A stretch of DNA of 63,369 nt, filler included, from an uncultured Methanosarcinales archaeon (GTDB lineage: Archaea; Nanobdellota; Nanobdellia; Woesearchaeales; CAIVOO01), in assembly GCA_964485195.1 (NCBI GenBank). It is 3 parts of 3 records of this genome, joined end to end, with 100 filler letters (N's around TTAATTAATTAA, not from the genome) between each part and the next. Parts side by side here need not be neighbours in the genome. Positions count along the whole stretch, not along the records: positions 31,555 to 54,051 come from CAZAIK010000006.1; 2 more parts are not named here. One strand, written 5' to 3'. The position numbers are program-made. Position 1 is the stretch's first letter; every line of letters begins with the position of its first letter. Positions 45,001 to 48,000 of this stretch are shown here, piece after piece.

Positions 45001-48000
45001 GGCAAATTCAGAAAATTCAGTTACATTCACCCTGAAAATCTCATCATAGGATCCTAAGTTCTTAACATAAACCTGGTATTGCACAGGACTGCACGGGCAG
45101 CTTACCTGGGAGCTTTCAGTAGGGGTTATCTCAAAATTAGCGCATCGGCCTGTATTTATCACCTGCTCAAAAACCTTTGAAAGCCCGAAAGTAGTTGTAA
45201 CATTTATTTCTTCCTTAAGCTTGCCTTCTACATCACAGGGAAGGTTGATATAGTTGATTATTTCCTTTGCCTGTCCTGGCTCTAAAACAAAGAAGCTCTC
45301 TGAGAAGGTGGAATAAGGCGCAGCGCTTCCTGACTTGAACATTTCATATGTGCTTGTGACGCTTCCTGTGTTCCTGATTGTGTAGGTCGTTGCAGTTAAT
45401 CCGCAAGAGCACGCATCCAGTTCCTGCTTCTGGGCTGATAAGGAGAAATCCTCTGAAACACCCAGTGCAGACTGCGAAAATATAAGAAGGGTGAACAAGA
45501 TTATCAAAAATCCAAGCAGTTTTTTGCTACTCATTGTCAATACTCATAAGTTGTTACTCCGTAATGAATAACCCATATATAAATGTTTGGGTTTTTATAT
45601 TCAATATATAGATGCAAAGTTTATTAAACAGAATCCATAACCCTCCTGTATGTTTTTAAGCAACATAGACCCTGTGCTGCTAAGATTAGGCCAGTTTGAA
45701 ATAAGATATTACGGCCTGATATATGTAATAGGGTTGGTTATTACCTACTTTTTCCTGACCTACCTGGCAAAACAGCGGAAAATGCCCTTAAAAAAAGAGG
45801 ACATCCTGGACCTGCTTTTCTACGGCATTATCAGCATAATAATCGGAGCAAGGCTGTTCTACGTGCTTTTCTACAACATCCCCTACTTTGCCTCTGAACC
45901 CCTCAAAATCCTTGCCATATGGAAAGGTGGCCTCTCCTTCCACGGCGGCTTAGTGGGCATTATTTTTGCAGGCTGGTGGTTCTGCAGAAGGAAAAAAGTG
46001 GATTTTTGGGAGATGGCAGACCTTGTTGTAATTCCAGTATCTGTTTCCCTGATGCTGGGCAGGATTGGCAATTTCCTGAACAGCGAGCTTTACGGAAGGC
46101 TTTCCAATGTTCCCTGGGCAGTGAAATTTGAGGGTGTGGAAGGATTCCGCCACCCTTCCCAGCTTTACGAGTCTTTCAAAAACCTGATCATTTTCTCTGT
46201 ATTGTGGAATGTCAAGGACAAAAAACAGCCTCACGGTGTCATGTTTTCCTATTTTCTTATGATGTACTCCTCCTTCAGGTTTGTGATAGAGTTTTTCAGG
46301 CAGCCGGATGTTCAGCTGGGGTTTGTTCTGGGCCCGTTCTCTATGGGTCAGCTGCTTAACATACCTGTGTTCCTTGCAGGGCTTGCCTTGTTCTTTTACT
46401 TTCATAAATCTTATAAAAAAAGGAAAACAAGAAAATAAAATGAACAAGGAAAGAAAGAAAACAAGGAACATTGCGATATTCCTGGCAATACTTGTGCTTG
46501 CGGTAGTGGGTTACGCAGTCTATGTCAATGTATTTGCACCTGCTGACTACCCTGAAACTTATCTCCCCAAGCCCCGTGAAGGAAATGAGTCAGCAAAGGT
46601 TGTTATTACAGAATACAGCGACTTCGAATGCCCTGCGTGCGGTTATGCAGAGCCGACGGTCAGGACATTAAGGTCAGAATACCAGGACAGGGTGGCCTTC
46701 AGGTTTGTCCATTTCCCCCTCACCAACATACACCCCAATGCATTGAAAGCAGCAGAGGCCTCTGAATGCGCCAATGACCAGGGAAAATTCTGGCAATACC
46801 ACGACAAGCTGTATGAAAACCAGAGAAATTTGGGCACAAAACTCTATTATGAAATCGCAGGAAATCTCGATTTGGGCATGGAAAAGTTCAGACAGTGCCT
46901 GGAATCAGGCGCAAAGAGGGAAACTGTTTTAAGGGATTTTAGGGAAGCGATAAACAAGAATTTAAGAGGAACCCCCACCTTTTTCGTGAACGACGTGCAG
47001 GTGGAAAACTATGCCTACGAAAACTTTAAAAAGATAATAGAGGAAGAGCTTAAAAAATGAAAAAACAATTCCTTTTTCTGATCTTTATTTTGATTGTTTT
47101 TATTGTGGGCTGCGGTTCACAGGAAAAACCAACCGACTCAATCGACGAAGGGGCGGGGGAGATGGAGGAAGAAGGTGTTGAAGAGGCAGCAAAAGTAACA
47201 ACATTGGCTGAAGTGAAAATCTATGATTCGGGATTCAGGCCGGAAGAAGTCACCATAAGCAAGGGAGGAACAGTGAAATGGATTAACAGGGGAAGCGAGG
47301 ACCACACAGTCCAAAGCGACACTTTCCCTCAGGAAGCAGGCATTGACAAGAAATATTCAGGAAGGCTTGCCCCTGGCCAGAGCTGGGAAAAAACCTTTAA
47401 TGTGGAGGGCTTTTACAATTATTACGACCTTTACAATGATGAGCTTAAGGGCAAGGTGATAGTGAAATGATGATTCACGAAGTTGATGAGGACAGCTATG
47501 AGCAGGAGGTAATAAAAACAAACAGGCCAGTGGTAGCTTATTTCTGGGCGCCCTGGTGCAAGTTCTGCAACATTATGACACCAAGGTTTGAAAACCTGGT
47601 CAAGGATTTCAAGGGTGATGTGAAGTTCTGCAAGATAAACATAGAGGAGAATGAGGAGCTGGCCAAAAGGAACAATCTTAGGGGAATACCCTGCATAATC
47701 CTGTATCACGGTGAGAGAGAAGTGGGCAGGGTAATGGGTGTTGAAGAGGAAAATGTCTTGCTTGAAAAGATTGAGAGCCATCTGAAGGATTTTTATTGAT
47801 AAAATGAGCCCGATAGAAGAAAAAAGAGCCTATATCTCAAGCCTGATAGAGGCTCTGAAAAATGCAAAAAGTGGCAGGGATAAGAGGAAACTTACAGAGA
47901 TGATAGTTTCTGCCAAAAAAGAGCTTGAAATGATGGGCGAAAAATTTTAATTTTATTTTTAAATAAAAACAAAAAATTAAAAAATGTTTTATTATTTCTA

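Follow-up and report, generated by a model that had tools for sequence, protein, structure and literature searches.

A bacterial-type prolipoprotein diacylglyceryl transferase in a Woesearchaeales-type archaeon and its mutual exclusion with the archaeal AliA family

The residues essential in E. coli Lgt, the bacterial-type prolipoprotein diacylglyceryl transferase, are known from mutagenesis and include Y26, H103, R143, E151, G154, Y235, R239, E243 and R246; at position 138 the G138A mutant is active and the G138I/V mutants are inactive. Lgts of monoderms do not rescue the published arabinose-dependent E. coli K-12 Lgt-depletion strain. The chemistry of Lit, which acts downstream of Lgt, requires an sn-2 ester. 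On the archaeal side, lipoproteins of Haloferax volcanii bear thioether archaeol, the product of AliA. Homologues of Lgt and Lsp have been denied for archaea (Nat Commun 2025, JBC 2026, mBio 2026), as an earlier note on the DNA studied here had stated, and the abstract of the mBio 2026 paper describes Lgt as "absent from archaea". The same note had suspected that supplements of DPANN comparative papers might already hold these families, and this proved to be the case: Table S3 of Castelle et al. 2021 (PMC8204110) gives fam06994 (LGT) and fam04729 (Peptidase_A8), each at 0.83 of 196 Woesearchaeota genomes. There the families appear as table rows only, with no mention of lipoprotein, Lgt or signal peptidase in the main text. 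The occurrence of Lgt and LspA in Woesearchaeota is not new in print. Our literature search turned up no paper that discusses Lgt or LspA for DPANN, and Lgt/Lsp terms were not found in three supplementary files of Dombrowski 2020.

We analysed a window of 63,369 nt, filler included, in which parts of contigs C5 and C6 are joined with a third part; runs of N occupy 31455-31554 and 54052-54151. The genome carrying the window lgt is referred to as G000. The contig piece with lgt carries the following features:

31593..34934, plus strand: archaeal DNA polymerase D large subunit (DP2), context marker (PolC_DP2 domains, 413, 392 and 242 bits)
35500-35907, minus strand: aIF2-beta, context marker (Pfam eIF-5_eIF-2B, 117.2 bits)
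37433..39448, minus strand: archaeal MCM helicase, context marker (Pfam MCM, 301.7 bits)
45620..45629, plus strand: TATA-like box TTTATTAAAC, 21-30 nt 5' of the lgt ATG, read from the sequence by consensus resemblance only
45650..46438, plus strand: lgt, bacterial-type prolipoprotein diacylglyceryl transferase, 262 aa (Pfam, NCBIfam, PDB, AF2 model)
46440..47060, plus strand: DsbA-like thiol:disulfide oxidoreductase with N-terminal membrane anchor and CPAC motif (Pfam Thioredoxin_4, 101.8 bits; DSBA, 59 bits)
47057..47470, plus strand: cupredoxin lipoprotein with lipobox IVGC (Cys19), predicted Lgt substrate (Cupredoxin_1, 29.9 bits; Copper-bind, 29.4 bits; lipobox scan)
47467..47799, plus strand: thioredoxin with WCKFC motif and no signal peptide, closing the four-gene row (Pfam Thioredoxin, 84.7 bits)

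The window Lgt matched Pfam LGT (PF01790) over model positions 1-240 of 240 at 266.6 bits (cut-off 24.9) and NCBIfam TIGR00544 at 230.1 bits (cut-off 118.9), and it was the single PF01790 match in G000. The match to PDB 5azb (E. coli Lgt) had E 6.5e-51, the very figure given in the earlier note, whose description of a full-length bacterial-type Lgt is borne out. Identity was 34% to the E. coli enzyme over the full length and 46% to the top bacterial match. Aligned to the E. coli-essential residues were Y21, G22, Y75, S96, F97, H98, L101, G137, R138, G140, N141, E146, G149, P169, Y206, R210, E214, R217 and M232, the sole change among the essential residues checked being a Ser at the G138 position. 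Across archaeal Lgt, ten essential positions were invariant in 32/32 sequences and H103 was kept in 31/32; the equivalents of R143, R239, N146, N149, E151, G154, P197 and Y26 were invariant in 32/32. In a fold search of the AF2 model (pLDDT 93.2, pTM 0.88) against the PDB, 5azb was the only match at E<=1e-3 (TM 0.84, rmsd 3.0 A), and the model, together with this match, shows the seven-helix membrane fold with arms and head domain.

The row lgt, DsbA-like gene, cupredoxin gene and thioredoxin gene lies on one strand, successive genes being 1, -4 and -4 nt apart, in agreement with the DsbA-like and lipobox cupredoxin neighbours already reported for lgt. A conserved lgt operon was considered and rejected: the neighbours differed in nearly all of the 31 relatives compared. 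A thiol oxidoreductase adjoined lgt in 3/32 loci. Sequence inspection found no Shine-Dalgarno upstream of the lgt ATG, which in combination with the TATA-like box suggests an archaeal, leaderless-type promoter. The PolD, MCM and aIF2-beta genes on the same contig piece agree with the archaeal contig claimed before, and the base composition of lgt was typical of the genome (GC z 0.08, GC3 z 0.93, against 854 ORFs), a 32-contig assembly with 99.47% completeness and 0.56% contamination. Lgt was also present in the single-contig genomes G016, G025, G085, G097, G158, G345 and G388, and in single-contig genomes lgt adjoined ArgRS, ThiI, IMPDH and MutS. Taken together, the data support a genuine, intact and archaeal-resident lgt gene, which probably encodes a working bacterial-type Lgt, long domesticated in this DPANN (Woesearchaeales-type) archaeon.

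Two candidate partners of Lgt are encoded elsewhere in the genome, the second of them also in the window:

G000:C4:57941-58405, plus strand: LspA, 154 aa (Pfam Peptidase_A8, PF01252, 108.2 bits, cut-off 25)
2746..3960, minus strand: Lit-domain protein, 404 aa (Pfam Lit, PF07314, 79-82 bits, cut-off 24; PDB 7b0o, E 1.2e-11)

LspA matched PDB 6ryo (S. aureus LspA) at E 1.2e-18, its GNFVDR and FNLAD motifs aligning with GNFIDR and FNIAD, so that the catalytic Asp motifs are both kept. In the Lit-domain protein, the Lit domain occupies ~aa 17-218; after it come a basic linker, then a fifth TM helix and, at the C-terminus, an unexplained domain of ~155 aa. In the alignment with B. cereus Lit, His86 and His155 fell on the catalytic residues His85 and His153, and the equivalents of D88, V89, F149, F157, N159 and W162 were kept. 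The earlier note had assigned both proteins to these families and had called the C-terminal part of the second one unexplained; both assignments stand, and the last 180 aa had no Pfam family at E<=1. This extra C-terminal domain is absent from most relatives. Lit itself was present in 77/101 genera of the sample and not found in the remaining 24, among them the closed genome G025; it overlapped lgt on the same strand in 2/31 relatives examined. The three-step pathway proposed earlier therefore holds for most lineages but not for all. Lnt (TIGR00546) had no match in G000.

Lgt and LspA were widespread among the relatives. In 301 same-order genomes, which like all related genomes in our presence/absence counts are not independent of one another, so that p values computed on them are overstated, we found Lgt in 281, LspA in 274 and both in 260, consistent with the earlier statement that most Woesearchaeales carry the pair; the 35 genomes with one enzyme and not the other may reflect assembly gaps or may be real. 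A 201-genome sample of the class contained 177 genomes with both enzymes, 7 with Lgt only, 7 with LspA only and 10 with neither; by our own tally of the table, Lgt was present in 147/153 same-order and 36/47 other-order genomes. All 10 genomes lacking both enzymes fell in six other-order families, and at the family level Lgt and LspA were kept or missing jointly. In a quick IQ-TREE tree of 91 rows, whose bacterial rows are biased because they were gathered via peptide patterns from the query, archaeal Lgt did not form one clade and the bacterial label needed 4 changes over a weak backbone. An AU test did not reject a single archaeal clade (p 0.417), which does not establish such a clade either. 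The history of Lgt may have involved several transfers, in either direction; naming a donor lineage was dropped on account of the weak backbone and the biased bacterial sample.

The lipobox content of the proteomes provided a second view of the pathway. The earlier note had counted 32 lipobox proteins among 1311; lipoboxes are indeed present, but a stricter regex returned only 24 of 1292 ORFs in G000, of which ~21 were convincing and lay on contigs C1-C12. Cys at +1 was 3.5- to 28-fold enriched per residue frequency compared with 11 other residues. Three Peripla_BP_6 proteins (on C7) were confirmed among these predicted substrates as claimed, but Pfam matched one cupredoxin rather than three. 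Lipobox-Cys ORFs were then compared in seven genomes:

G000, Lgt present: 23/1292
G345, Lgt present: 8/466
G388, Lgt present: 4/463 (0.86%, low)
G330, AliA present: 5/298
G305, neither enzyme: 1/373
G326, neither enzyme: 0/452
G316, Lgt-negative with weak DUF63: 0/462

Lipobox-Cys N-termini thus made up 0.9-1.8% of ORFs in genomes with Lgt or AliA versus 1/1287 in those with neither, a comparison of seven genomes by a crude regex with uncertain start codons, G305 and G326 coming from one family. Signal-like N-termini were similar across all seven. Lipobox content tracked the presence of Lgt or AliA.

The presence of an AliA homologue, a point left open in the earlier note, was examined through arCOG02177/02178 (AliA/AliB), taken as Pfam DUF63 (PF01889), an equation that rests on supplementary-alignment labels and the control pattern. 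No DUF63 match over the cut-off of 25 was detected in G000, the top score being 15.2 bits in a 991-aa frame containing a stop. In the 201 class genomes DUF63 was found in 4, all four without Lgt and without LspA, and in 0/184 Lgt-positive genomes. DUF63 and Lgt are mutually exclusive across this sample, which favours the earlier reading, and the best explanation is that in this archaeal class the bacterial Lgt/LspA pair replaces the archaeal AliA system. Published Supplementary Data 3 records arCOG02177 = 0 and arCOG02178 = 0 in all 7 Woesearchaeota genomes, two of which are credited with 12 lipoproteins among 42 secreted proteins. The presence of the bacterial Lgt would explain why Woesearchaeota in the published AliA data have predicted lipoproteins yet no AliA.

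The proposed pathway would begin after Sec export: a membrane phospholipid would supply a glyceryl-lipid group, which Lgt would attach to the lipobox Cys thiol of its substrates, solute-binding proteins, the cupredoxin and thiol oxidoreductases probably among them. The bacterial-type signal peptidase II LspA (contig C4) would then remove the signal peptide before the lipobox Cys, and in G000 the Lit-family enzyme would shift one acyl chain onto the new N-terminus. Such an acyl shift presupposes an ester-linked lipid, whose presence we infer. Profile searches of G000 gave no match to the lipid-synthesis families PF01066, PF02660, PF01553, PF01884, PF01148 and PF01864, and because all six are missing, the cell must obtain the donor lipid by scavenging. 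Across the order, PlsC-type acyltransferases occurred in 51/101 genomes, and PcrB/GGGPS gave only 13 marginal partial matches (19.5-25.1 bits), none convincing. Since G000 does not make lipids itself, PlsC occurs without a convincing GGGPS, and Lit needs an ester, scavenged ester-type phosphatidylglycerol is the most likely donor for Lgt, at chances we put near even. More broadly, and with somewhat less confidence than that, we tentatively propose that the whole DPANN class dropped the ancestral AliA, with its thioether archaeol, and runs Lgt-LspA(-Lit) on bacterial-type ester phospholipids, scavenged from bacterial partners or built by bacterial-type acyltransferases.

The main competitor to this scheme accepts a functional Lgt and changes only its donor, which would be archaetidylglycerol from an archaeal host, giving an archaeol thioether as with AliA and leaving Lit with another role. 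The organism is, after all, an archaeon that must scavenge its lipids, and thioether archaeol is what H. volcanii lipoproteins carry. We nevertheless regard it as unlikely: the His dyad of Lit, an enzyme requiring an sn-2 ester, is kept and the family is present in most genera; Y26 and R143, which contact ester oxygens in E. coli Lgt, are invariant in all 32 archaeal sequences; and PlsC-type acyltransferases occur in the order, where GGGPS is unconvincing. The existence of AliA-bearing relatives without Lgt would also be odd if both enzymes yielded one product. The DPANN hosts known so far are archaea, which counts for the archaeal donor. The ester-type donor remains our preferred reading.

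The tight four-gene row, whose genes other than lgt encode two thiol oxidoreductases and a lipobox cupredoxin, and the thiol oxidoreductases beside lgt in three of the loci compared, could instead indicate a specialised Lgt paralogue that serves these few neighbours and has no part in general lipoprotein maturation. We consider this very improbable, since the gene is the sole PF01790 match in G000, the lipobox proteins are scattered over C1-C12, the lgt neighbourhood is unconserved in the 31 relatives, the catalytic residues are all canonical, and the occurrence of Lgt goes along with that of LspA and with the lipobox content of whole genomes. Contamination or mis-binning of lgt from a co-assembled bacterium, for which one might cite the 32 contigs and the fact that PF01790 matched only bacteria among 14 control genomes, is refuted by the closed genomes and has virtually no chance of being correct in view of the archaeal markers beside lgt, the low contamination estimate, the typical base composition and the 281 Lgt-bearing relatives.

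The premise of archaea without Lgt or Lsp, on which the three recent papers build, is incorrect for a radiation that ranks among the largest in the archaea. The finding also offers a testable handle on the long-standing question of the lipids of these uncultivated cells and of the type of host supplying them. If the ester-lipid scheme is true, finding Lgt, LspA and Lit in these genomes would be a read-out that places these archaea on the bacterial side of the lipid divide, with bacteria as the cells they probably live on.

Compared with E. coli Lgt (PDB 5AZB/5AZC), the G000 enzyme shares the HGGL and GRxGNFxNxELxG motifs, the essential residues bar G138, and the fold; it differs in its archaeal host, in the Ser at G138, in a stretch ~30 residues shorter where it aligns to head-domain residues past the signature motif, and in a genome devoid of the six lipid-synthesis families. 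The Firmicute Lgt-Lsp-Lit pathway (B. cereus Lit 7B0O, S. aureus LspA 6RYO) has the same three families, with the Lit His dyad and the LspA Asp motifs, and as in Firmicutes there is no Lnt in G000, presumably a monoderm cell with lipoprotein solute-binding proteins; the differences are the archaeal cell and a Lit carrying an extra TM helix and the ~155-aa C-terminal domain. The tabulation in PMC8204110 made no link to AliA, lipoboxes or lipid type; new here are the exclusion between AliA/DUF63 and Lgt and the tracking of lipobox content. AliA/AliB of Haloferax volcanii, representing the enzyme employed by other archaea, share with Lgt the same predicted job, lipidation of the archaeal lipobox Cys, but are in practice not homologous to it, the HHpred probability to PF01790 in the AliA paper being only 29%. 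Among close relatives in the class, two unrelated enzymes for one task are mutually exclusive, which amounts to a natural experiment.

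The feature under study could be read from the window sequence as an intact reading frame:

45650-46438, + strand, lgt, 262 codons

Its product covered the Pfam LGT model (PF01790) whole at 266.6 bits, scored 230.1 bits against NCBIfam TIGR00544 (cut-off 118.9), and matched E. coli Lgt (PDB 5azb) at E 6.5e-51. An AlphaFold2 model made from 31 archaeal sequences (pLDDT 93.2, pTM 0.88) returned 5azb as the sole match at E<=1e-3 in a fold search of the PDB, with TM 0.84 and rmsd 3.0 A. These whole-model, family and fold matches confirmed that a bacterial-type Lgt does occur in this archaeon, as the earlier note had claimed. 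Alignment by MAFFT of E. coli K-12 Lgt with 32 archaeal sequences, including L014 from the unpublished genome G183, was compared with the residues listed as essential by mutagenesis of the E. coli enzyme (Mao et al. 2016, PMC4728403). The genome under study (G000) kept Y26, G27, Y80, S101, F102, H103, L106, G142, R143, G145, N146, E151, G154, P197, Y235, R239, E243, R246 and M262 (E. coli numbering), and the sole changed essential position was G138, replaced by Ser133. Y26, G99, G104, R143, N146, N149, E151, G154, P197 and R239 were invariant in 32/32 archaeal sequences and H103 was present in 31. This conservation suggests that the G000 protein functions as Lgt.

lgt is an archaeal gene. The G000 assembly (1.126 Mb, 32 contigs) has 99.47% completeness and 0.56% contamination, and N runs at 31455-31554 and 54052-54151 separate the three contig pieces of the window. 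The piece with lgt also encodes the PolD large subunit, aIF2-beta and MCM, and the first piece carries L10e, PolB and IleRS together with the gene for the lipoprotein intramolecular transacylase Lit. Compared with 854 ORFs of the genome, lgt had a GC of 0.437 (z 0.08) and a GC3 z of 0.93. The upstream sequence contained no Shine-Dalgarno before the ATG, and a TATA-like TTTATTAAAC was found 21-30 nt 5′ of it, a matter of resemblance only. Downstream of lgt followed a membrane-anchored DsbA-like protein, a lipobox cupredoxin and a thioredoxin, in this order, with gaps of 1, -4 and -4 nt. Apart from Lit in two of them, the neighbours of lgt in 31 relatives were variable and of housekeeping type (AspRS, PheRS-beta, ArgRS, HerA, ThiI, IMPDH, MutS). 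In G000, a SpoIIM-family membrane protein is encoded ~9 kb away from lgt (35966-36805, + strand); SpoIIM (arCOG01994) is described in the 2025 AliA paper (PMC12462473) as a common aliA neighbour.

Several other genes of the window were recorded:

27849-28673, + strand, Peptidase_M23 (peptidoglycan endopeptidase family)
50138-51212, - strand, HEPN-domain gene and adjoining nucleotidyltransferase (Polbeta/NTP_transf_2) gene
60508-61353, + strand, GGDEF diguanylate-cyclase domain protein (73 bits), third contig piece
18526-27743, 42298-45540 and 54096-60397, all - strand, giant predicted surface proteins

The Peptidase_M23 gene is in line with a published proposal of interaction between some Woesearchaeota and the cell walls of bacteria, GGDEF is another bacterial-type signalling family, and the HEPN pair has the usual HEPN-MNT toxin-antitoxin layout. 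The giant proteins comprised one of 1693 aa (subtilase domain, FG-GAP repeats), one of 1379 aa (NosD/beta-helix repeats), one of 1080 aa (Ig-like repeats; its gene is divergent from lgt) and two, of 1453 aa and 647 aa, that had no Pfam match.

PF01790 was present in 281/301 genomes of the same GTDB order, in 211/223 of its high-quality genomes and, counted per genus, in 206/217; PF01252, the family of the signal peptidase II LspA, was present in 274/301. Cross-reading of the two tables gave 260 genomes with both genes, 21 with Lgt only, 14 with LspA only and 6 with neither. These tallies include nine unpublished genomes, all carrying both genes, without which the counts become 272/292 for Lgt and 265/292 for LspA. 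In a phylum sample of 201 genomes, every one at least 90% complete, Lgt was found in 184 (147/153 of the same order, 36/47 of other orders of the class) and LspA likewise in 184; 177 genomes carried both, 10 carried neither, and each gene stood alone in 7. Because the 10 genomes with neither all belonged to other orders and were spread over six families, the two genes are kept or missing jointly at the family level. Single-contig genomes with both genes were G016, G025, G085, G097, G158, G345 and G388. A MAG labelled Candidatus Nanohaloarchaea (L062) carries an Lgt 39% identical to that of G000, reflecting either Lgt in further DPANN lineages or a wrong label.

Identity of the G000 Lgt was 34-60% to the 31 remaining archaeal sequences and 34% to the E. 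coli enzyme. A species-genome sample, pattern-based and biased, gave Nanoarchaeota- or Woesearchaeota-labelled MAGs as the best matches (44-59%) and Pelagibacteraceae as the best bacterial ones (40-46%). A tree of 91 rows had a weak backbone, on which the bacterial label changed four times, with just one change forced by well-supported branches, and the AU test did not reject a single archaeal clade (p 0.417). An ancient gain close to the root of the class, with vertical inheritance since then, would fit these data, short of being established by them.

The donor lipid was approached through the lipid genes. Searches of G000 for CDP-alcohol phosphatidyltransferase, PlsY, PlsC-type acyltransferase, PcrB/GGGPS, CdsA and CarS, and for Lnt, returned no match; therefore, its lipids must come from outside. 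Among 101 genera of the order, CDP-alcohol transferases were found in 56, PlsC-type acyltransferases in 51 (among 14 control genomes, in the ten bacteria only), and PcrB as 13 marginal partial matches of 19.5-25.1 bits, in agreement with the report that GGGPS and DGGGPS were not found (Huang et al. 2021). In some order genomes, CDP-alcohol phosphatidyltransferase genes stand in rows of up to four and PlsC-type acyltransferase genes in tandem pairs (e.g. G015:C27:23476-25485; G050:C10:22171-23197), so phospholipid capacity is patchy rather than uniformly absent. These results agree with the bacterial fatty-acid genes and bacterial G3P dehydrogenase reported in some Woesearchaeota (Castelle et al. 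2021, PMC8204110). One lipobox protein of G000 (L220, G000:C3:96263-97231) has two PLD-like domains (PLDc_2, 136 bits). Since G000 lacks a CDP-alcohol transferase, one may speculate that this surface enzyme could remodel head groups of scavenged phospholipids, possibly yielding the Lgt donor.

Lit shifts an sn-2 ester acyl chain onto the N-terminus (Olatunji et al. 2021). It was found in 77/101 genera of the order, 75 above cut-off, and in this search not in the closed genome G025. The G000 protein (2746-3960, - strand) kept both dyad histidines, H86 and H155, along with conserved D, V, F, F, N and W positions. Its residues ~219-404, past the Lit domain, comprise a linker of basic character, a fifth TM helix at aa 230-248 and a ~155-aa extra domain with no Pfam match at E<=1, and the protein is a possible fusion with a downstream surface protein. 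In most relatives the Lit frame is 200-270 aa long, two others being long (G096, 325 aa; G069, 486 aa). Lit and lgt overlapped on the same strand in 2/31 relatives with neighbourhood examined, both genomes of another order (family f140):

L023 (G383), 2986-4306, same strand, 14-nt overlap, apparent two-gene operon
L027 (G377), 2346-3747, same strand, 8-nt overlap, apparent two-gene operon

The lipid bound in E. coli Lgt touches Y26 and R143 through its ester oxygens (Mao et al. 2016, PMC4728403), and the equivalents of both residues were invariant across the archaeal enzymes. Jointly, the lipid genes, Lit and these residues favour an ester-type donor, a reading to which we give about even chances.

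The earlier note had left an AliA homologue unchecked. As a proxy for the AliA family we used Pfam DUF63 (PF01889), following labels in the supplementary alignment of Hong et al. 2025 (PMC12462473); the equation is indirect because the main text of that paper does not name DUF63. Consistent with it, H. volcanii, M. jannaschii and M. acetivorans were the only control genomes with DUF63. G000 had none above cut-off (top score 15.2 bits). In the phylum sample, DUF63 was found in 4/201 genomes (G316 at 30 bits; G330, G332 and G387 at 185-205 bits), all lacking both Lgt and LspA, and in 0/184 Lgt-positive genomes. The two families were thus mutually exclusive, with a hypergeometric chance of 3.6e-5 computed on four genomes in just four families, relatives not being independent.

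A strict lipobox regex (K/R within the first 7 residues, a hydrophobic core, six uncharged residues preceding the box, box [LVI][ASTVI][GAS]C, Cys at position 15-35) retrieved 24/1292 G000 ORFs; per residue frequency, Cys at +1 scored 1904 vs 68-539 for 11 other residues. Twenty of the ORFs judged convincing, all predicted Lgt substrates, were compared with Pfam and included three Peripla_BP_6, two CARDB, one PEBP, one PLD-family, one metallo-beta-lactamase and two thiol-redox proteins, with no match for 10 of the 20. The window cupredoxin is predicted to be a further Lgt substrate. For comparison, 239-400 kb from each of six relatives were processed with the same caller, starts being allowed in the first 30 codons.

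Lipobox-Cys ORFs in seven genomes
G000, Lgt-positive, 23/1292, 1.78%
G345, Lgt-positive, 8/466, 1.72%
G388, Lgt-positive, 4/463, 0.86%
G330, AliA-positive, 5/298, 1.68%
G305, neither, 1/373, 0.27%
G326, neither, 0/452, 0%
G316, Lgt-negative with weak DUF63, 0/462, 0%

Signal- or anchor-like N-termini numbered 56-105 per relative and 287 in G000, a comparable fraction of ORFs across the seven genomes, and the same box carrying A, S, G or T at the +1 position occurred in each of them. Taken together, the three Lgt-positive genomes had 35/2221 lipobox-Cys ORFs vs 1/1287 in G305, G326 and G316 (Fisher's p 1.9e-6, from seven genomes only, two negatives being of one family). Lipobox content tracks whichever enzyme, Lgt or AliA, the genome carries.

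The earlier note's suspicion that a DPANN supplement lists these families was correct. In Castelle et al. 2021 (PMC8204110), Table S3 gives LGT (fam06994, K13292) a frequency of 0.83 in Woesearchaeota (196 genomes), 0.078 in Pacearchaeota (90) and 0.054 in Aenigmarchaeota (37), and Peptidase_A8, signal peptidase II (fam04729), likewise 0.83 in Woesearchaeota; lipoprotein, Lgt and signal peptidase all go unmentioned in the main text. Occurrence in Woesearchaeota was thus already tabulated and overlooked. Our literature search found no discussion of these archaeal genes, and further supplements or public genome annotations may list them. Hong et al. 2025 (PMC12462473), who introduced AliA/AliB (arCOG02177/02178), stated that archaeal Lgt/Lsp homologues were not identified; their Supplementary Data 3 lists 0 and 0 for the two arCOGs in 7/7 Woesearchaeota genomes, and Supplementary Data 1 lists 12 lipoproteins among 42 secreted proteins for two of these. 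What is added here is the family-level co-variation of Lgt and LspA, the mutual exclusion of Lgt and AliA, and a lipobox content that follows the enzyme present; in an organism unable to make its own lipids, the pathway becomes a probe of membrane type.
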